A stretch of DNA of 64,000 nucleotides from Candidatus Abyssobacteria bacterium SURF_5 (lineage in GTDB: Bacteria > Abyssobacteria > SURF-5), in assembly GCA_003598085.1 (NCBI GenBank), contig QZKU01000045.1, positions 15,852 to 79,851 of the forward strand. Direction: 5' to 3'. Every line of letters starts with the position of its first letter. The stretch's first letter is position 1. Below, piece by piece: positions 1 to 9,055 of the stretch. A program made the position numbers and the translations under genes. The notes beneath the pieces were generated by a model. It was given only the letters and a program-made list of their open reading frames with translations, was not told the DNA's origin and did no database searches.

Positions 1-840
1 TATTCCAATTCGACCTGGACGCTTCCCAGCCACGTATCCATGTTTTCCGGCCTCTTGCCGTCTGAACATAAAGTCGCGAACCAGGGCGATAAGGTTGCGC
101 CCACCTTTGATCTCTTGCCGGAAACGCTGCAGAAAAAAGGATACACAACAGCCGGTTTCGTTGAAAACCTGTGGTTGTCTGCGCCCTTCGGCTTTAGCAG
201 GGGGTTTCACGAGTACATTTACAATGCTGCTCCGCAATCGGCATTCGCAAATGCCGAAAAGTTTCTCGAATCAGCCAAAACGCCCTATTTCATCTTTATA
301 AATACCATGACGGTTCATGAGTGGTGGGCTACTCTGCGAAGTTATCCGATAACCGATGAAGGCTTTGTCGCCGCCGTCGATAATCCGGCAAGCGGGTCTC
401 TTTACGCCGAAGCCGTCAGCGCATCCGACAAACAGGTTTTCCAGTTCATTGCCGCCGTCCTCAAGCATGACCCTGAAACGCGGATCATTCTCACGTCCGA
501 CCACGGCGAAGGTCTCGGAGAATCCGAGTACGGCTATGTCTCAAAGGGTCATCATACATATCCCGTTCCATCGCAAACTCGCGTTCCGTTGATTATTTCC
601 GGCAAACCCCGGACCGAAGGAGCGCTTTTCGACTTGCGAAGCCTCAAGTCCCTCATAATTGGCGAGCCATTTCCGGCCGGCGCCATCGTGTCCGAAATCA
701 ATTACAAAGACATCCATTACACAGCCACAATCTCAGAACGTCAGTATGCAATCAAGGAGTCCGATGCCAAGCCGTCAAACGCTGACGACATTCCCCCCGA
801 CATCGCCGCCCAATTAAAAACCCTGGGATATCTGAATTAA
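1..840 (+). CDS. Sulfatase-family protein (alkaline-phosphatase superfamily), 5'-truncated by the window edge
   Basis: Open frame runs from nt 1 in the frame of the 40..840 ORF. Carries a PSEHKVANQGDK region and an SDHGEGLGE motif typical of the sulfatase C-terminal core. Stop codon at 838..840. Confidence 0.6.
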   Translation, partial: YSNSTWTLPSHVSMFSGLLPSEHKVANQGDKVAPTFDLLPETLQKKGYTTAGFVENLWLSAPFGFSRGFHEYIYNAAPQSAFANAEKFLESAKTPYFIFINTMTVHEWWATLRSYPITDEGFVAAVDNPASGSLYAEAVSASDKQVFQFIAAVLKHDPETRIILTSDHGEGLGESEYGYVSKGHHTYPVPSQTRVPLIISGKPRTEGALFDLRSLKSLIIGEPFPAGAIVSEINYKDIHYTATISERQYAIKESDAKPSNADDIPPDIAAQLKTLGYLN

Positions 841-1199
841 GAATCTTCCGCGACTCTTGTCTGAAATAATTCTTTTGGTCTTGGACAGTGCTCAATCAAA
901 GTGAAAACTGTTGGCGGATACTGAAAATTTCATTAAACCGCAAAGGCGCAGAGGCCGCAAAGACAGGATAAAAGGAGGATTCAAAAGGTCTTGTTGTGCA
1001 TTGTCTTTCTCTGCGCTCTTCGCGTCTCAGCGGTGAAAAAAAGCTTTATAAAAACAGCCTAAAACCAGTCACTCCAATCGGCTCTGCAAGATATGGGTTT
1101 TCGAGAATCAAAAAACCGTATCAGATATTGGACAGCAGTGTTTTTTCAATCCAAAGCATGTCCCGGACCTTGCCCCGGGATCGAAAATCCAAAATCCAA

Positions 1200-1253
1200 A
1201 ATAAAAAAGAGCGCCCGACTGGACTCGAACCAGCGACACGCGGTTTAGGAAAC
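1200..1253. repeat. 54-bp direct repeat (attR-like). It duplicates the 3' part of tRNA-Arg(CCU), from the anticodon loop to the 3' end plus an 8-nt trailer.
   Basis: Perfect 54/54 identity with 8972..9025 (aataaaaaagagcgcccgactggactcgaaccagcgacacgcggtttaggaaac). Flanking bases differ on both sides (1199 a vs 8971 t; 1254 g vs 9026 c). Confidence 0.85.
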
Positions 1254-1510
1254 GAGACCGTTAAAAACGGCTGATGTGCAAACGGCTCGGAGGCTTATAA
1301 ATAAAGGCTTCTGGGCCGTTTCTTTTTGGTTTGCGTCGTGTCGTGTCGGCTCGTGTCGGCGTTTTAAGCACACTCACAAGCACACTGGCATGCACACTAC
1401 TGGACACATTTTGCAGTTGATTATGGGGTTGATCCATGATAGATTATTTCTTGTAGTGCTCGGTTCATCAAGCTCCATACATCTGACCAGAAGGGAGAAA
1501 TCTACTCGGC

Positions 1511-2650
1511 ATGCCATTTGAAATTAAATTTGAACAACTGCCGGGTGGATATGTAGTAACTTCCGCTCGTCCTGGCGAGGAATGGGAGATGGAGCTTCGG
1601 GGTTTCGTCTCCTCTGAAGATGGCGATGAGCTTGTGGCCAAACTCGAAAAATTACCTCAGCAGATTCTCTCTATGCTTCCATTCAAGCCGCCTATTCTGC
1701 CATCCATGGTAGATTCACTTTTGGCCGTGATTCGGAAGGACAGGACGGCAACCATATACCTAAATGAGGCGCAATCGGTTATCTTAATTCGCATAAAAGG
1801 CTCTTGTGAGAAAGGGGAATTAATAACAAAAAATCGTGTGTTGGATATGGGGAAAATGAGATTCCCTGGGGTAGATATTCCTCCAGACGCGGCCATCATA
1901 TACGTCTTTTCTGTAGGTTGGCGCAAAGGGTTCTTCTACGACCTTGAGCCTCTATATGGAGAAAAAGCCGAACCGCGCGGTTATGACCTTGAGGATGTTC
2001 TTGGAAGTCTCTACTCATATCTATCCTTCCAGGAACGGTTCAAGATTGACAATAAGACCTGGCAGACCTTCTTTGCGCAGAAATGGTTTCCATTCGTTTA
2101 CCTCGATGATCAGCTAATCCGCGACATGATATCGCACGCAAGGGCGGGGTGGCAGATCGATGAACTGCTTCCAAAGGTATCGGCCAACGTGGGACGGCTG
2201 CTTGAAACGTCCCCCTTGATTGAGAGGAAGGACTTGGTTTTTGCTGAACATATCGAGATGCTCAAGACATCTGTTGAAAGATATCTCGCAGGCGACCACA
2301 TTAGCTGCGCTTCAATTCTATACCCGCGCATCGAGGGATTGCTTCGGTCATTCCAACGGACCTCTGGATGCACATCCTACCCAACGGCAAAGACGTTGAG
2401 CAAAACTGCCGTGGAACACCATCAAACGGCAAGGATATCAGCTTCCCTTCTTCTTCCGTCGAAATTCAACGAATATCTGGACAATGTCTACTTCGCCCAT
2501 TTTATACCCGGCTCTGCGCCCGATGTTGGGCGACATTCCGTAGCACATGGTGAGGCCCGAACGGACGACTTCTCTCTTAAAGCAACTACTGTTGCATTTC
2601 TCATCATTTATCAGCTATCGCTGTTCTTCTCGGACGAAAAGAAGAAATAG
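1511..2650 (+). CDS. Hypothetical protein (379 aa) with a C-terminal R-x4-H motif suggestive of a HEPN-type RNase fold. Possibly Abi-like.
   Basis: Long ORF with an AGGGAG ribosome-binding site ~10 nt upstream. Motif G-R-H-S-V-A-H-G at nt 2531..2548 fits the HEPN R[NHQ]xxxH signature. The rest has no recognisable family. Lies inside the A+T-rich island. Confidence 0.45.
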   Translation: MPFEIKFEQLPGGYVVTSARPGEEWEMELRGFVSSEDGDELVAKLEKLPQQILSMLPFKPPILPSMVDSLLAVIRKDRTATIYLNEAQSVILIRIKGSCEKGELITKNRVLDMGKMRFPGVDIPPDAAIIYVFSVGWRKGFFYDLEPLYGEKAEPRGYDLEDVLGSLYSYLSFQERFKIDNKTWQTFFAQKWFPFVYLDDQLIRDMISHARAGWQIDELLPKVSANVGRLLETSPLIERKDLVFAEHIEMLKTSVERYLAGDHISCASILYPRIEGLLRSFQRTSGCTSYPTAKTLSKTAVEHHQTARISASLLLPSKFNEYLDNVYFAHFIPGSAPDVGRHSVAHGEARTDDFSLKATTVAFLIIYQLSLFFSDEKKK

Positions 2651-2872
2651 TGGATTTTCTTTCGGCTCACCTTAATGCGAAGGCCACGGCCCCTCCGAAC
2701 GATGACAAAATCTGCACGAACCATGAAGAAATATGCAGGAAAAATCACGAAATATCAAGGGGTTGTCGGGGAGTAGGGTTATTGGTCGGTTTTCTGGAAT
2801 TCGACCAATCTGGTATAATTACGTGCGTTCCGCCTCAGAGCTTTTCAATTTGCCAAAGGTAAAGGAGTCATC

Positions 2873-3985
2873 ATGCTTGGCAAAAACGATCTTCATCTGG
2901 AGTTGCTTGAGGTTGCCGAGCGCTTGGAACAACTAGCTCAGGAAGGTCAACTGCCGGATGTAAAGACACCGTTAGAAGAATTGGAAGGAGCAGCAAATAC
3001 AGTTGGTAAAGCTTGGAGCGGTTCATGGATCGGATATCAATCGCGTATTTACTACTCCTACTTCAAGCCTCCGCCACCGGGGGACCATTTTAATTCATGG
3101 GCGGGAAGGGCTGATACCGACAATTGGAAAGAAGTCGATAATGAAAAGGTACAAGAGCGAATTTACGAAAAGGCTGGTAATCCAGACCTTCAGAAGGCCG
3201 AAAGAGTTGCAGAAAGGGCTAGAAAGGCCTTTGAAAGCGATAAGCTTGAAGTCATGTCACTTTTGAATCATGCATTACTGGAGCAAGAGGATTCTTTTCT
3301 TGCTCAACTGAAAGATCGAGTTGAAAAAACAAATATCACTTCAAGAATGGAATTCATTCACGCGCTTCAACCCTCTAAATTTTCTACGCTTGATGTAGTT
3401 GCAGGACAACAGGGCATTCAAATTCCTCCTCATTTATCTATACTGTCTTTAGTTTACTACTTGCGCAATACGATAGAATCATGTGCGAAATTAGGACAAT
3501 TTGCGCGGAAGGCCGGGTCGCATCTGGCACGGCTACAGCGGCAAACCCGTCGCTCGCTCGAAATAGGCACCAACGTTTTCATTGGTCATGGTCGTTCTCC
3601 GGTCTGGAGGGAGTTAAAGGATTTCGTCCAGGACCGCCTCCACCTCCCTTGGGATGAGTTCAACCGCATTCCAGTTGCTGGAGTAACCAATGTGGCTCGC
3701 CTGTCCGAATTGCTTCAATCGGCGGCAATGGCATTCCTGGTTATGACGGGTGAGGATGAGCAAGCTGATGGTACTATGAACGCACGGATGAATGTAATTC
3801 ATGAAGCAGGATTGTTTCAGGGCCGTCTGGGTTTTAACCGGGCAATCATCTTACTGGAGGAGGGTTGTGAAGGATTCAGCAACATAGAAGGGCTGGGACA
3901 GATACCCTTCCCGAAGGGGAATATCACTGCGGCCTTTGAAAAAGTGCGAGAAGTCCTCGAAAGGGAAGGATTAATTGTGTCATGA
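2873..3985 (+). CDS. Protein with an unknown helical N-terminal domain (~240 aa) and a C-terminal CAP12/PycTIR-type TIR-like (PF10137-like) domain
   Basis: C-terminal segment VFIGHGRSPVWRELKDFV...AFLVMTGEDEQ...ARMNVIHEAGLFQGRLGFNRAIILLEEGCEGFSNIEGLGQI matches, block for block, the VFIVHGHD...FAIVLLTPDD...ARQNVIFELGFFLGKLGRERV..L.EKGVEIPSD..G pattern of the TIR-like domain of CBASS CAP12 and Pycsar PycTIR effectors. AAAGGAG ribosome-binding site precedes the ATG. An extended -10 (TGGTATAAT, 2811..2819) lies upstream. Confidence 0.7.
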   Translation: MLGKNDLHLELLEVAERLEQLAQEGQLPDVKTPLEELEGAANTVGKAWSGSWIGYQSRIYYSYFKPPPPGDHFNSWAGRADTDNWKEVDNEKVQERIYEKAGNPDLQKAERVAERARKAFESDKLEVMSLLNHALLEQEDSFLAQLKDRVEKTNITSRMEFIHALQPSKFSTLDVVAGQQGIQIPPHLSILSLVYYLRNTIESCAKLGQFARKAGSHLARLQRQTRRSLEIGTNVFIGHGRSPVWRELKDFVQDRLHLPWDEFNRIPVAGVTNVARLSELLQSAAMAFLVMTGEDEQADGTMNARMNVIHEAGLFQGRLGFNRAIILLEEGCEGFSNIEGLGQIPFPKGNITAAFEKVREVLEREGLIVS

Positions 3986-4024
3986 GATTTCTGCATTTTA
4001 GATAAAAAAGGGCTGAACAAAGAG

Positions 4025-4720
4025 ATGGCGGGTTCCAAGAAATATGAACCACCGAAGGCCACAGCAGGGGATTATACGCATACGGTTGTTCGTGCAGGTC
4101 TCGGTGCGATTCCTTTAGTGGGCACTGCCGCGACAGAGCTTTTCCGTCTTGTCGTCGAACCTCCATTGGATCGGCGTCGCCAGGTATGGATGGAAGAGGT
4201 CGGGGAGAGTCTCCGAAAGCTGGATGCTGAAAAGGGAGTGCGCCTGGAGGACCTCCGGGAGAATGATACTTTTATCGATATTGTCCTTCAGGCGAGCCAG
4301 GCTGCCATGAGGACCAGCCATGAAGAGAAGCGGAAAGCTTTACGAAATGCAATCATGAATTCGGCCCTCCCTCATTCGCCCGACGAGGCGCGACAACACT
4401 TTTTCATCCGACTAATTGACGAGCTTTCGGCACGGCATCTGCAGGTTTTAAAAATCTTCCAGGACCCCTTGGAATGGGCAAAAGCAAATAAGCACGATAC
4501 TCCGATAATAGTGGGTGACAACGAAGATGCGGATTTGGCGCGAAGACTTGCCTTTCCTGATATGGGTGACGAACGCCCCTATGCTGAGCAAATATGGCGG
4601 GACTTGCATGTTCGGGGCTTGGTTAAAAGAGATTCTTTTCAAAGGGTTTTCGGTCCCGCAAAGAACGAAATAACTGTTATCGCCCATGAATTTCTCCGGT
4701 ACATCAAGGAGCCGGTCTAA
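4025..4720 (+). CDS. Hypothetical protein (231 aa), probably co-transcribed with the upstream TIR-like gene
   Basis: ORF starts 40 nt after the stop of the previous gene and has an AAAGAG ribosome-binding site. No recognisable motif. Charged and helical composition. Confidence 0.45.
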   Translation: MAGSKKYEPPKATAGDYTHTVVRAGLGAIPLVGTAATELFRLVVEPPLDRRRQVWMEEVGESLRKLDAEKGVRLEDLRENDTFIDIVLQASQAAMRTSHEEKRKALRNAIMNSALPHSPDEARQHFFIRLIDELSARHLQVLKIFQDPLEWAKANKHDTPIIVGDNEDADLARRLAFPDMGDERPYAEQIWRDLHVRGLVKRDSFQRVFGPAKNEITVIAHEFLRYIKEPV

Positions 4721-4916
4721 TACACAGAAACAGCATTTCAAGCCTCTGTCCTTTGCAGCCTCCCTCTTGCCGTACTCCCGGTATACTCGAAAGCCAGTCA
4801 GGACGCCTCCGACCAGTGACGAAATCTCCTCGAATCGTGAAGAAAAAGGCAGGAAAATTTACGGAATATGAAGGGCTTCTCGTGAAATGGTGGTTATTGG
4901 TCGATTTTCCAGGAGG

Positions 4917-7445
4917 TCAGCCTCTCTTTCGTCTCGCTGGAATTTCAATAGTGACCGGTAGCCCAATCTGAACCGCGACGGGTGTGTAAATATCAATATC
5001 CTCTTGCGGGGTATAGATAGACACAATCAAGGTGTAACGAGTCCGCCTGCTCCACCTGTTCAAATGATGCCGTTCCCGCCACCATCCTACAGACGGATAA
5101 ACAGCGATTAGATTTGATCCGGCTAAATCCGCGGCTCTTCCGTGCCAGATATCGGAGTGAATTGAACCTACATTTCTTGCCGCTCCAATGAGCCAATTTC
5201 CCCCAATACCTTCCGTGCCAGGATGCTCGCCATCGTCGCGAGCTTGTTCATTCACTCGCTGAACAAATTCGCTTTCTGATTCCCCAGGTCCATTCACCTC
5301 AAAGCGAAGTCCATGTGAGGCATATCTATATCGATCTTCCCACCCCACCTCACCTGGACTGGGCTCAATGAAATATGAGAGAGTTATCCGCATCGTAACC
5401 TGCATTGCCCCAAGTTCCGTGAGAGTATCCTTGGGCCAAGGAAGGTTGTAGAGATGCATCTCTCGGGATATGTAGCGGCTTGCTAATTTCCTCGTACCAT
5501 CACGCCCTATGGATTCCTGAATCTTCTTCTCAAAGGGTGTCAATTCTGCCTGTGAAATCAAAGTCAAAGAATTAGATAAACAATACAAAGCATCATTTAG
5601 CTTGGGTACACCATACCCACAAATTCGCAGGAGTCTTGCGTAATCACTCTTTGATCCAGCTCCGAGGAACTGCCGCTTAAGAGTGCCTGTCCAACCTGCC
5701 GAATGAACAATCAGAGCGCGAATGGTTTCTGGCCAAGCATCCGGATATTGAGCCTGAATTTGTGCAGCCATCCATGCAGCTTGTGCGCAAGCAGCGCTCG
5801 TAGCGCAAAAAGTAGCGAATTGGGCTTCTTGTGGCTTGTAATACGTTGAAAATAGTTGCAGATCATCCGGACCCATTGCGGAACCATCCGGGCTGCGCGC
5901 AACGTTCCCTCCTTCAAAAACAACCTCAGGTTTTATTGGCCATTTTCGACTAGGCCATGCGGTCGAAGTAGTACTATAAGGAGATAGTCCTCCAGATGGT
6001 GCAATTGGCTTGTAGCCTTTATATGTAGGATCACTGATCCATATCTTTTCAGTAAACGCTCCAATAGTCAAGGCGTTCCATGCCTGCCCTGGATCATGGA
6101 CCTCATTTGACAGATTCGCGTCGGAATAGTTTCGCCAATCATCGGAAGTGCTAACGTTTCCGGCGCTGATTAAGATAAGACGTCGAGTATCATCTTCGTA
6201 TCCAGAGGCTATCTCGTCCAATTTGGCTGACCAAGAAGATGGCTTGCCCTGGTCACGGGTTTGCTCGGAGGTGACAGCAATACACCCGATGCGCTTTCGA
6301 GTTGGCGCTTGAATCTCTGCAAGACTTATCCCCTGGGCCGTAAAATATCCCCATAACTCCTTGGCATTCCTGTCAGGCGGTGGTGGCAGTATTTTTGCCG
6401 ACTCTATGCAATGGGTGATGTTCACGGGAACATCGTGATCAAGAAGAAGCGACAAATCACCATACGCAGCAGTTCCCGCCATAAGAGTTCCATGACCATC
6501 ATCATCATTTGTGCCCCAATGTCCACGAACAGCGTGAAGGTCGTCGGGGTTGAGAACCGGCTGAATCAGCAAGTGCCCATTATTCACACCTGTATCAAGA
6601 ATACAGACAGCCACATCTGAGTCTCTGTCAACAATTGTACGCGCCAACAGTCTTTGCACCAACACCAACTGATCGCGGTTATCCATCTGGACGTAAAAAG
6701 AAGCTATCTTCTTGGCCCCCCTAAATTCCGCAATGTCGTCCGAGCATTCAACTAATTGTTTCAGTTGGCTGCGATTCGCCCGAATAAGCATAACTGTTCT
6801 CTCTGGAAACTTAAGAATACCTTCTTTCAATTCGCACTTCACACTTCTCAACAACGGCTCAAAATGAGAGACAACTTGATCTTGGTCGCTGCTCAGCCAG
6901 ACCTCGACCCAATCGGGGGAATTACCCGGTATAAGAGATCGCTCCTCTGGACGCCAGAAAGATTCCAAGACGGCAAGGCGAATGTCGTCAATGCTATTCA
7001 CCAGATTATAATTTTTTGGTCTCTTGCTGCGCTCGTTAATCTCAGTCGCATATGCTCTAATTTTACTTAGGAAGTAGCGGCGCTTGTTATTTGGAACGTA
7101 GACCGTTGCCAGAGTCCGCTCCAGACCTTGCTCGTCTTGCTTTCGGACATTCTGGAGACGAATTCCAGACCGTAACACATCAAGGCTCTGGACAATCAAG
7201 TCGAAACCTGGTGTACTTTGAAATTCAATGTATGTACCTTGGCGTTCCACGTAAACGGCTGTTCGACGTTGACGTTGGTCAGCTTCAGCCCAAGTCTCAT
7301 TGAGGCGCTCCTGCAGATGAGCGCTATGCTGTTCTCGGTTTCGTGGTGGAATCTTTGGAGAGCGGCCCCCTTTATTTGGGCTAGTAAATCCTTGTGTGTG
7401 GGTTGGCCCTGCCAAGAATATGTGCCTGTATCGCTCACCAGCCAT
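4917..7445 (-). CDS. Subtilisin-like serine protease (peptidase S8 domain) with large N- and C-terminal extensions; IetS-like
   Basis: Catalytic motifs ILDTGV (Asp), GHGTLMAGTAAYGD (His) and FCATSAACAQAAW (Ser, GTSxA-like). 842 aa. Start codon lies 6 nt after the stop of the upstream AAA ATPase gene. This arrangement matches the IetA/IetS two-gene module known from Agrobacterium Ti plasmids and reported as an anti-phage system. Confidence 0.75.
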   Translation of the reverse strand: MAGERYRHIFLAGPTHTQGFTSPNKGGRSPKIPPRNREQHSAHLQERLNETWAEADQRQRRTAVYVERQGTYIEFQSTPGFDLIVQSLDVLRSGIRLQNVRKQDEQGLERTLATVYVPNNKRRYFLSKIRAYATEINERSKRPKNYNLVNSIDDIRLAVLESFWRPEERSLIPGNSPDWVEVWLSSDQDQVVSHFEPLLRSVKCELKEGILKFPERTVMLIRANRSQLKQLVECSDDIAEFRGAKKIASFYVQMDNRDQLVLVQRLLARTIVDRDSDVAVCILDTGVNNGHLLIQPVLNPDDLHAVRGHWGTNDDDGHGTLMAGTAAYGDLSLLLDHDVPVNITHCIESAKILPPPPDRNAKELWGYFTAQGISLAEIQAPTRKRIGCIAVTSEQTRDQGKPSSWSAKLDEIASGYEDDTRRLILISAGNVSTSDDWRNYSDANLSNEVHDPGQAWNALTIGAFTEKIWISDPTYKGYKPIAPSGGLSPYSTTSTAWPSRKWPIKPEVVFEGGNVARSPDGSAMGPDDLQLFSTYYKPQEAQFATFCATSAACAQAAWMAAQIQAQYPDAWPETIRALIVHSAGWTGTLKRQFLGAGSKSDYARLLRICGYGVPKLNDALYCLSNSLTLISQAELTPFEKKIQESIGRDGTRKLASRYISREMHLYNLPWPKDTLTELGAMQVTMRITLSYFIEPSPGEVGWEDRYRYASHGLRFEVNGPGESESEFVQRVNEQARDDGEHPGTEGIGGNWLIGAARNVGSIHSDIWHGRAADLAGSNLIAVYPSVGWWRERHHLNRWSRRTRYTLIVSIYTPQEDIDIYTPVAVQIGLPVTIEIPARRKRG

Positions 7446-7451
7446 TTGGCA

Positions 7452-8420
7452 TTAACCTTTGTGTTTTCCGTGCGAGCTTTGTCGTTCCTTCAACATTTGT
7501 AGTAGCAAGGTTGCCTTCACCTTTCCCAAATCAGCAAGGATAACTTCTTTAATGGCGTCTCGGCAGGCTTGGTCAATCTCTGCATGACTCAACCCTTCAC
7601 TTTCGGCAAGCACGCTCTTCCACGCAAATCGTGAAGCCAAGAAACTTCCCAGTACGTTTTGCATCAAACGTCGCCGTTCGTTTTCTTTTGGCTGGTCATA
7701 GTAAAGAACGTCATCGAAACGTCGAAACAATGCTCGATCCAAGAGTTTTGGGCTATTCGTAGCGGTAATGATTAGGCTATCAGAAACATCCTGCTCGATG
7801 AATTGCAGAAATGAATTCAGAACACGGCGCATCTCTCCCACATCATTTTCTAAAGTCCTCTCACCGCCAATCGCATCGAATTCATCGAATAAGTACACCC
7901 CAAGGTCCCTCTGAACCAAGTCAAAAATCTGGCGGAGCTTTGCACTTGTTTCTCCCATAAATTTAGTTACCAGTCGATCCACCTGAATTGTATGGAGCGG
8001 CATGCGAAGCTCGTGTGCCAATACGCGCGCAGACATTGTCTTTCCCGTTCCTGGCGGGCCAACAAGCATAATTTTCCGGCGAGGCATTAGACCGTGCTCT
8101 TTGAGTTTCTGCCTTTGCCTGTACTCGTGGATTATTCGTTTTATTCGCTTCTGTAAGGCAAGGGGTAAAACCAAGGTCGCCTGAGAAACGTCCGGTTCCC
8201 CCGACAGGACAAGTCCCCGCAAATCTTGCGGAAACTTTAAAAGTGTGAGCCTATTTTCGCTGCGCGCTTCATCAACCATTTTGCGGATATCATGAGCCAG
8301 CGCGCCATGTCCCTGCTGAGCCTCGTATGCTGCAACCTGAAGTGCAATAGTGTAAAAACGTTCCGGGTCCTCACTGAAATGACACCTTATCAATGACTTG
8401 ATCTGTTCCGCAGTTGCCAT
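7452..8420 (-). CDS. AAA+ ATPase (classic AAA clade), IetA-like partner of the S8 protease
   Basis: Walker A LVGPPGTGKT, Walker B VYLFDEFD, sensor-1 ITATN and an SRH-like LDRALFRRFD. 322 aa. GGAGAA ribosome-binding site upstream. Confidence 0.8.
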   Translation of the reverse strand: MATAEQIKSLIRCHFSEDPERFYTIALQVAAYEAQQGHGALAHDIRKMVDEARSENRLTLLKFPQDLRGLVLSGEPDVSQATLVLPLALQKRIKRIIHEYRQRQKLKEHGLMPRRKIMLVGPPGTGKTMSARVLAHELRMPLHTIQVDRLVTKFMGETSAKLRQIFDLVQRDLGVYLFDEFDAIGGERTLENDVGEMRRVLNSFLQFIEQDVSDSLIITATNSPKLLDRALFRRFDDVLYYDQPKENERRRLMQNVLGSFLASRFAWKSVLAESEGLSHAEIDQACRDAIKEVILADLGKVKATLLLQMLKERQSSHGKHKG

Positions 8421-8478
8421 AAGATTCTCCGAATTTCTTTTCGCTAGCTCATGCGCGACTGCAAATGTCTATGTTCAA

Positions 8479-8507
8479 AGTGTACTTGATTTGCTGAAGA
8501 TTATCAA
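8479..8507 (-). promoter_or_regulatory. Candidate sigma-70 promoter for the ATPase-protease operon (TTGATA-17-TACACT read on the minus strand)
   Basis: -35 TTGATA is the reverse complement of 8502..8507. -10 TACACT is the reverse complement of 8479..8484. Spacer is 17 nt. About 60 nt upstream of the ATG at 8420. Confidence 0.25.
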
Positions 8508-8971
8508 ATTATTAGAGGTACAGGCGAATGGAATCATTTCATACGGCTCCTACACCCCACCTTCCTGATGCCTATGCATCATCCATTGTGAATTGGATCA
8601 GGTTCTGCTATCTTCTCCGCAGATGGACACGACGCCTTATAGAAGACATCCGACCACCTCGATGCAACATAAGCGGCTGTGTCAGCAGCGGCTGTGTCAG
8701 CATCAGCCTTCACATCTTCCTCTGTCGGCTCCTGTGCCCACAGGCGGACATTCTGCACCCTTGCCTCTCTCTTTGCCTCTAGGAAGTCCTCCTGATACTT
8801 CATTCGGCGGGAATGTTCCGCGATGCCGGTCTGAAGACGGCTGCACTGAAGCAAGGGGTTTATTCAGAGAGGCTTGGAAATGAAACAAGTACACTGACAA
8901 GCACACTCGTCCATTTTCCCACCAACCAAGAAAAATCTGCCGAGCTCACAAATAAAAATAGGGCAAAGAAT

Positions 8972-9025
8972 AATAAAAAAGAGCGCCCGACTGGACTCGA
9001 ACCAGCGACACGCGGTTTAGGAAAC
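8972..9025. repeat. 54-bp direct repeat (attL-like), the copy that lies within and next to the intact tRNA-Arg gene
   Basis: Identical to 1200..1253. Confidence 0.85.
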
Positions 9026-9055
9026 CGCTGCTCTATCCTTCTGAGCTACGGGCGC
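8982..9055 (-). tRNA. tRNA-Arg(CCU)
   Basis: Reverse complement folds as a cloverleaf. Acceptor stem GCGCCCG/CGGGCGC. D arm GCUC-AGAAGGAUA-GAGC. Anticodon stem-loop GCGGU-UUCCUAA-ACCGC (anticodon CCU). T arm GCUGG-UUCGAGU-CCAGU. 74 nt with no encoded CCA. Confidence 0.85.

Follow-up and report, generated by a model that had tools for sequence, protein, structure and literature searches.

The window analysed here, a stretch of 64,000 nucleotides (nt) from the metagenome-assembled genome 'Candidatus Abyssobacteria bacterium SURF_5' (GenBank assembly GCA_003598085.1, contig QZKU01000045.1, positions 15,852 to 79,851 of the forward strand), carries near its beginning three neighbouring open reading frames (ORFs) on the plus strand, designated g1, g2 and g3. 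An earlier sequence-only reading had taken them for one candidate anti-phage cassette built of a sensor, a TIR effector and two partners. The present analysis supports another arrangement, in which g2 probably encodes, as a single stand-alone polypeptide, both a sensor and a CAP12/Pycsar-type TIR effector hydrolysing nicotinamide adenine dinucleotide (NAD+), belongs to a large cross-phylum family and would, by analogy, function like SpbK of Bacillus subtilis. Jointly with this, the segment 1254-8971 of the window is probably a small integrase-less defence island inserted at tRNA-Arg(CCT), with four independent modules, namely g1, g2, g3 and an IetA/IetS-like pair. The sensor, which the earlier reading sought in the adjacent genes, most probably corresponds to the N-terminal domain (N-domain) of g2 itself. 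The features of g2 and its upstream region are as follows.

2873..3985, plus strand: g2, whole gene, 370 amino acids (aa), from the ORF list.
2873..3562, plus strand: g2 N-domain, residues 1-230, helical, with the core GS..GY..VYY / PPxGxHF / RDxxAxxQG..PPH; predicted sensor or regulatory module.
3572..3910, plus strand: g2 C-terminal CAP12/Pycsar-type TIR domain, residues 234-346, with the putative catalytic Glu311; predicted NAD+ hydrolase effector.
2811..2819, plus strand: extended -10-like element TGGTATAAT upstream of g2, read from the sequence.

The assignment of the C-terminus of g2 to the TIR-like family PF10137, made originally from the letters, was borne out by the profile search: the model (CAP12-PCTIR_TIR) matched residues 234-346 over 117 of its 119 positions, with E=2.4e-18 and 66.7 bits at a Pfam gathering score of 24.7 bits, and the blocks VFIGHG, AFLVMTGEDEQ and ARMNVIHEAGLFQGRLGF, quoted as the hallmark of the domain, are invariant in the g2 family alignment. 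The search of PDB with a profile from 20 g2 homologues matched the Cap12/TIR-STING chains 9lmq and 7un8, the family invariant block 'ARMNVvHEAGLFqGRLGF' being aligned to 'RDNVVFEFGLFLG' of these chains. The glutamate of the NVVxExG motif corresponds to E311 of g2, is invariant across the family and is aligned to the Cap12/TIR-STING glutamate; it is presumably the catalytic residue, as in TIR NADases, and the TIR domain of g2 is predicted on these grounds to be an NAD+ hydrolase effector. Upstream of the gene, the element at 2811-2819 and the sequence AAGGAG at 2862-2867, located 5 nt ahead of the ATG, suggest on direct reading an own promoter and a strong ribosome-binding site of g2; the consensus promoter scan did not list the element, a good -35 hexamer being absent.

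The N-terminal ~230 aa of g2, described previously as helical and without assignment, have no match in Pfam, NCBIfam and PADLOC. The AlphaFold2 (AF2) model shows them confidently as long helices, at a predicted local distance difference test score (pLDDT) mostly >90; the structure search with this domain returned generic helical-bundle matches only, and neither Pfam nor the structure search gave any similarity to STING, SAVED, CARF, SLOG or cyclic nucleotide monophosphate (cNMP)-binding folds. The exhaustive phmmer search with residues 1-230 yielded 892 representative clusters at 50% identity. Among the best 149 of these clusters, 80 carried the same TIR domain, and the 69 others were represented by fragments, by the N-domain only, or by proteins with a different C-terminal part. 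Thus, the N-domain was found fused to TIR_2 (P0402), to the HEPN family Hypoth_Ymh (P0351), to a protein kinase (Pkinase, P0313), to GGDEF/Cas10-palm (P0297) and to the phosphorylase/nucleosidase domain PNP_UDP_1 (P0408), as well as joined to hydrophobic, predicted transmembrane tails (P0288, P0289, P0321, P0326 and P0347), with the residues G50, S51, G54, Y55, Y60, Y61, F73, G78, D174, A177, P186 and H187 forming an invariant core in all the fusions. In the proteins P0318 and P0420, the N-domain is followed by C-terminal domains without Pfam match. The mean pairwise identity across phyla in the family alignment is 82% for the TIR domain (minimum 75%) versus 46% for the N-domain, a difference in keeping with a diverging sensor attached to an effector under constraint. 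Because the N-domain is modular and the two halves evolve differently, g2 may be regarded as a self-contained sensor and effector, and the swapping of effectors behind one N-domain corresponds to the architectural logic of the single-protein abortive-infection proteins of AbiJ-NTD type (PMC3710099).

Full-length relatives of g2 make up more than 6800 clusters, the best of them 53-64% identical over 98-100% of the length, and occur in cyanobacteria, Limnochorda, Planctomycetota, Acidobacteriota, Proteobacteria, Chloroflexota, Actinomycetota and others. Their distribution is patchy, with 276 pattern-confirmed g2-type matches among 185,579 species genomes. The uncharacterised PHROG family phrog_16442 matches g2 residues 83-367 (E=2e-35), which implies that phages or prophages carry this architecture too; among phage genomes, a single partial match to g2 was obtained, with the TIR domain alone. 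The neighbourhoods were compared in a sample of 80 genomic loci with 8-kb flanks, in which 1176 flanking ORFs were clustered. No neighbour family is conserved, the largest one being present at 5 of the 80 loci in scattered positions. Many loci have a same-strand ORF of 200-300 aa just upstream of the g2 homologue; the search for a hidden, remotely homologous partner was negative, since the same-strand ORFs directly upstream and downstream were mutually unrelated in the all-against-all BLASTP comparison (E<=0.01).

The genes adjoining the g2 homologues include DNA methylases, Type ISP and IIG restriction-modification (R-M) enzymes, SIR2_2, PIN, integrases and transposases, surroundings typical of mobile accessory genes. 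By the Pfam scan of 145 immediate neighbours, the families with three members were methyltransferase families only, and those with two members comprised Type ISP R-M, SIR2_2, PIN and integrases, and also metabolic families. One g2 homologue adjoins Vsr, two C5-methylases and a Type ISP enzyme, one adjoins the genes of DUF4258 and DUF3644, and one, on a Ciceribacter plasmid, lies near toxin-antitoxin genes, DUF3800, insertion sequence (IS) elements and an N6-methylase. The conjugative IncF plasmid pKGB1a of Klebsiella variicola (locus L170; NZ_CP071736.1, 22906-36024) carries a g2 homologue of 42% identity; at a distance of ~1.2 kb, genes for a TPR protein, a pair of small TIR-domain proteins and a DUF4231 protein form a cluster. 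This region, flanked by Tn3 and IS66, represents a compact TIR-rich defence patch. At another locus (L174), the g2 homologue at 1948-3084, 62% identical to g2, is preceded at ~500 nt upstream by a divergent ORF of 216 aa (801-1451, minus strand) with the PF00211 domain of class III adenylate/guanylate cyclases, the fold of Pycsar cyclases. This ORF looks truncated, its C-terminal third resembling frameshifted or low-complexity sequence, and no homologue of it was found near any other g2 relative (>85 loci).

The partners proposed for g2 by the earlier reading, together with the repeats found around it, are characterised by the following positions.

1511..2650, plus strand: g1, 379 aa, with a beta-rich N-terminal domain (~1-150) and a C-terminal HEPN domain with R341-x4-H346-G347.
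4025..4720, plus strand: g3, 231 aa, a member of a small family (46 clusters) with sub-threshold Abi_alpha likeness.
2692..2794, no strand: upstream copy of a ~104-nt direct repeat bracketing g2 and g3, 79% identical to the downstream copy.
4806..4909, no strand: downstream copy of the ~104-nt direct repeat bracketing g2 and g3.

In g1, the HEPN-like R-x4-H motif pointed out previously was upheld: 22 sequences of the g1 family all have R341, H346 and G347, and the C-terminal domain has the four-helix HEPN fold. The GenBank start of g1 is placed 26 codons downstream (353 aa); since the alignment of the homologues begins at the upstream ATG (1511), with MPxEIxF..LPxGY conserved, the 379-aa form is the probable one. 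The UniRef label of g1 is DUF4209, a family classed as HEPN (PMC3710099); the Pfam model PF13910 (DUF4209) gave no match on g1 at E<=1 and reached E=0.2 in one g1 homologue. By the C-terminal HEPN domain with the invariant R-x4-H, the single-gene organisation and the variable contexts, g1 resembles AbiV, HepS, RnlA/LsoA and the C6orf70/DUF4209 HEPN proteins, whereas it differs from stand-alone HEPN abortive-infection proteins by the beta-rich N-terminal domain without assignment and by the Pfam DUF4209 similarity below significance. It is predicted to be a stand-alone protein combining an N-terminal domain with a HEPN ribonuclease of abortive-infection type, independent of g2.

As for g3, it was recorded as a 231-aa unknown protein close downstream of g2, and this description stands, with a gap of 39 nt and no significant family match. 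The Abi_alpha model (PF14337) scored 14.7 bits (E=0.03) on g3 without reaching the cut-off of 29, and gave weak matches in 6 of 24 family members (best E=0.0055); g3 matches also the uncharacterised phrog_26838 (E=8e-8). The homologues of g3 were found in five distinct contexts, namely a methyltransferase-restriction endonuclease fusion, the edge of a prophage-/satellite-like element, a metabolic region, unassigned genes and a transposase, with no TIR gene near any of them. Accordingly, g3 is a separate small gene of mobile hotspots and is not a conserved partner of g2. In the window g2 and g3 probably share one transcript, in view of the 39 nt that separate them and of the lack of a terminator-like site there. 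The ~104-nt repeat was rejected as a known RNA or repeated element: the window and 175 fetched loci yielded no additional copies, Rfam gave no match, and no hairpin was convincingly conserved; it may be the scar of an insertion or duplication that brought g2 and g3 between g1 and IetS.

The assumption that g1, g2 and g3 constitute one three-gene anti-phage system, with the flanking proteins sensing infection or regulating the TIR effector, is suggested by their adjacency on the same strand within one island and by the absence of all three from the named systems. It now appears highly improbable and was rejected, as no co-occurrence emerged from the 80 g2 loci, from another 80 loci carrying g1 homologues or from the five g3 contexts, an outcome which the sequence-only reading had itself named as refuting the cassette. 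Thus, the tBLASTn search of the 80 g2 loci with g1, g3, IetA and IetS revealed no g1 homologue at any locus and a g3 homologue at one, in Nitrospira (L025; 32% identity over 135 aa, E=4e-13), while neither g2 nor g3 homologues, nor any conserved neighbour, were present at the g1 loci. The four closest metagenomic relatives of g2 (61-62% identity) are also devoid of both g1 and g3. Besides, g1 and g2 are separated by 222 nt containing the promoter-like element and the Shine-Dalgarno sequence of g2, and each of the two proteins already pairs a non-catalytic N-terminal domain with a toxic effector domain, and is therefore self-sufficient by architecture. Hence the three genes are separate single-gene modules lying side by side in the defence island, and for the scanning of genomes it follows that adjacency within such an island is no evidence of a multi-gene system. 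A narrower variant, in which g2 and g3 make up a two-gene module specific to the lineage and acquired jointly between the ~104-nt repeats, with g3 as a modulator, antitoxin-like brake or second effector, is a minor rival and rather unlikely. It draws on the short gap without a terminator-like site, on the repeats that bracket exactly this pair, and on L025, where the g3-like gene is located immediately upstream of the g2 homologue on the same strand, even two adjacencies being worth attention in view of the rarity of the g3 family. However, 79 of the 80 g2 loci lack a g3 homologue, the closer g3 homologues have no TIR gene in their five contexts, the gene order in L025 is reversed in comparison with the window, and both families reside in hotspots of mobile or defence genes, in which genes often become neighbours by chance.

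The single-protein mechanism preferred for g2 is proposed by analogy with SpbK, TIR-STING, TIR-SAVED and PycTIR. In the uninfected cell, the N-domain would hold the TIR domains apart or inactive; on infection it would bind a cue, for which a phage protein assembly is one candidate; since the invariant core of the domain is polar and aromatic, a small molecule or a conserved ligand would be possible too. Binding of the cue would lead to self-association and to the formation of composite TIR active sites, whereupon NAD+ would be hydrolysed and the infection aborted. Several observations weigh against this interpretation. In the AF2 model of g2, the TIR half has the lowest confidence, including the catalytic-loop residues 295-320, with pLDDT 43-70 at residues 260-330. 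The very high conservation of the TIR domain and the fixed core of the N-domain are atypical of fast-evolving sensors of phage proteins, and the same conservation would be compatible as well with a housekeeping function or a response to a ligand. Of the genes directly adjoining the g2 homologue in the 80 genomes, about half are ordinary metabolic ones. The literature on PF10137, PDC-S35, COG4271 and DUF4209 contained no study of the g2 family that could be found, nor was any experiment on a family member found. The local link of g2 with g3, by the gap, the joint bracketing and the adjacency in L025, counts on the same side.

Two further explanations bear on these points. According to one of them, g2 would respond, as an orphan effector, to a diffusible nucleotide signal, and its N-domain would offer a pocket for a second messenger from a cyclase or TIR protein encoded elsewhere, in a CBASS-, Pycsar- or Thoeris-like manner acting in trans. 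The TIR subfamily shared with Cap12 and PycTIR, the polar and aromatic core preserved across the effector fusions, as expected for a ligand pocket, and the PF00211 ORF of L174 are in agreement with such a role, which is nevertheless quite unlikely. The sequence-only reading had noted no nucleotide cyclase, and this holds true for the wider region: the CD-NTase and PycC models gave no match in the five island proteins or in 40 ORFs from the other 55 kb of the window. No cyclase family recurs near the 80+ homologues, the ORF of L174 being unique and apparently truncated, and the all-helical N-domain is unlike the STING, SAVED, CARF, SLOG and cNMP-binding folds. The synthase and the effector of the known signalling systems are encoded within one operon. 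Similarly improbable is a non-immune g2, that is, a conserved accessory enzyme or regulator, for instance of NAD or nucleotide turnover under stress, residing in the island by chance. The conservation of its TIR domain across phyla and the many metabolic neighbours would be accounted for in this way, but not the patchy distribution, the completely variable neighbourhoods, the membership of a PHROG family and the presence on conjugative plasmids amid transposons and genes of toxin-antitoxin, R-M and other TIR proteins, or the swapping of the N-domain onto such classic toxic effectors as HEPN, transmembrane tails, PNP and kinase.

A broader proposition, to which somewhat less than an even chance is given, regards the N-domain as a widespread sensor not described before, gating at least seven kinds of suicide effectors (CAP12-type TIR, TIR_2, HEPN-Ymh, kinase, GGDEF/Cas10-palm, PNP nucleosidase and membrane tails) in single-protein immune systems. 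It may recognise one conserved infection-derived ligand instead of a variable phage protein, and this would make g2 the most frequent member of a new one-gene defence family using the CBASS/Pycsar TIR without cyclic-nucleotide signalling. Should the single-protein interpretation of g2 be true, it would reveal a large, cross-phylum and also plasmid-borne family in which this TIR subtype works without a cyclase, under control of a modular N-domain absent from Pfam, NCBIfam and PADLOC v2. If the target recognised by the conserved N-domain core were defined, a further sensor of bacterial innate immunity could be catalogued, and several thousand proteins now named 'nucleotide-binding' or 'TIR domain-containing' could be annotated.

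The island itself is delimited by the following features, which are given together with the genes between g3 and the right border.

1200..1253, no strand: left copy of the 54-nt repeat matching the 3' half of tRNA-Arg; att-like left island border.
4917..7445, minus strand: IetS-like S8 peptidase, 842 aa (Peptidase_S8 3e-59; PADLOC IetS 2e-26; NCBIfam IteS 64.7 bits, cut-off 900).
7452..8420, minus strand: IetA-like AAA+ ATPase, 322 aa (AAA 8e-29; PADLOC IetA 1.4e-72; NCBIfam IteA 210.6 bits, cut-off 510).
8972..9055, minus strand: tRNA-Arg(CCT) gene at 8981-9055, with which the right 54-nt repeat copy (8972-9025) overlaps; right island border.

The location of the three plus-strand ORFs (1511-2650, 2873-3985 and 4025-4720) in an A+T-rich tRNA island, as noticed before, was confirmed by their coordinates, by the decrease of the G+C content to 0.47-0.50 from 0.53-0.59 in the remaining window, and by the direct repeat of 54 nt with 100% identity (1200-1253 and 8972-9025), which is the 3' half of tRNA-Arg(CCT). 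The island (~1254-8971, 7.7 kb) contains five genes only, i.e., g1, g2, g3, the S8 peptidase and the AAA+ ATPase, with no integrase or recombinase ORF in the ORF list for 1254-8971; by the exact-sequence look-up, the island proteins are hypothetical proteins of the SURF_5 genome. It may be described as a cargo-only element with all genes of defence type, and a strong terminator-like hairpin with a 17-bp stem is found at 1280-1321, immediately inside the left repeat. The defence-type ATPase/protease pair reported next to the three genes is IetA/IetS-like by PADLOC: an IetA-type AAA+ ATPase and an IetS-type S8 peptidase are adjacent on the minus strand, as in IetAS, and since the NCBIfam equivalog cut-offs were not reached, the pair is considered a divergent member of that system. 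The rest of the window (9000-64000) resembles core genome, with apt-like, sigma-70 family factor, SppA-like, ComEC-like, radical SAM, GshA, Ddl and MFS transporter genes. The PADLOC matches in it (MzaA twice, RT_UG29, RTasDnaG-like and LmuA) are probably due to paralogy with housekeeping proteins; the RT_UG29 match (E=5e-51) could not be placed, as the 10 candidate ORFs were all housekeeping and the motif search gave only an HrcA-like protein.

Concerning the known systems, the earlier remark that no named one corresponds to full-length g2 was corroborated, with the PADLOC models concerned (PDC-S35, PycTIR and CBASS effector TIR) aligning to the TIR domain only. The CBASS Cap12/TIR-STING proteins and PycTIR have the same TIR subfamily PF10137 with the conserved glutamate, and NAD+ hydrolysis on oligomerisation would be expected for all of them; TIRs of this family were placed in the CAP12/Pycsar clade, not in the ThsB clades, and described as NADases on oligomerisation (10.64898/2026.04.30.722052). 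Unlike g2, Cap12 and PycTIR possess a STING, SAVED or cNMP-binding sensor and an operon with CD-NTase or PycC, whereas the TIR domain of g2 is located C-terminally behind an unrelated helical domain. The NCBIfam Cap12 equivalogs scored 31.2 and 26.8 bits on g2 (cut-off 450) within the TIR region only; the PycTIR model of PADLOC (E=2.1e-7) aligned g2 residues 243-361 only to its positions 164-281 of 288, and the PDC-S35 models (E from 1e-9 to 8e-7) covered only ~211-367 of g2 by their C-terminal half. Membership in CBASS was thus rejected despite the CAP12-type TIR domain, for there is no CD-NTase operon, no STING/SAVED sensor and no full-length Cap12 match; membership in Pycsar, for no PycC is adjacent and the similarity to PycTIR is not full-length; and membership in PDC-S35, for a full-length match is lacking. 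Neither was g2 assigned to Thoeris, as no ThsA-type or other signal-responsive effector partner is conserved in the neighbourhoods, and stand-alone TIRs are explicitly excluded from Thoeris in the census of TIR signalling systems (10.64898/2025.12.03.692087).

Closer parallels are provided by single-protein systems. In the AbiJ-type proteins, a non-catalytic N-terminal domain precedes interchangeable toxic domains, such as HEPN Ymh, TIR, kinase and nucleoside-processing enzymes (Anantharaman et al. 2013, PMC3710099); the N-domain of g2 is similarly reused ahead of interchangeable toxic domains, but it has no Pfam match to AbiJ_NTD/AbiTii and a length of ~230 aa against ~140 aa in AbiJ-NTD1. 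Several single-protein TIR systems of E. coli defend against phages, with the TIR catalytic residues required (Wang et al. 2024, PMC11350192), and, like g2, they are single genes with TIR only or TIR plus a domain of unknown function. The g2 family is probably not among the systems tested there, as the TIR region of g2 has no DNA-level match in 5,426 complete E. coli genomes. SpbK, an experimentally proven single-protein abortive-infection system which, like g2, is encoded on a mobile element (ICEBs1 of Bacillus subtilis), has a helical bundle at the N-terminus and a TIR NADase at the C-terminus; its N-domain binds the phage portal protein YonE and clustering activates the NADase, no partner gene being needed (PMC12847820). 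No SpbK name occurs among the PADLOC matches of g2, and the two proteins differ in that SpbK has 266 aa with a 94-aa four-helix bundle, while g2 has the ~230-aa N-domain with its own motifs and the PF10137 TIR. The architecture of g2, a single gene with a helical N-terminal domain plus a TIR domain at the C-terminus and with no partner, is nevertheless SpbK-like, in the sense of a functional analogy only.

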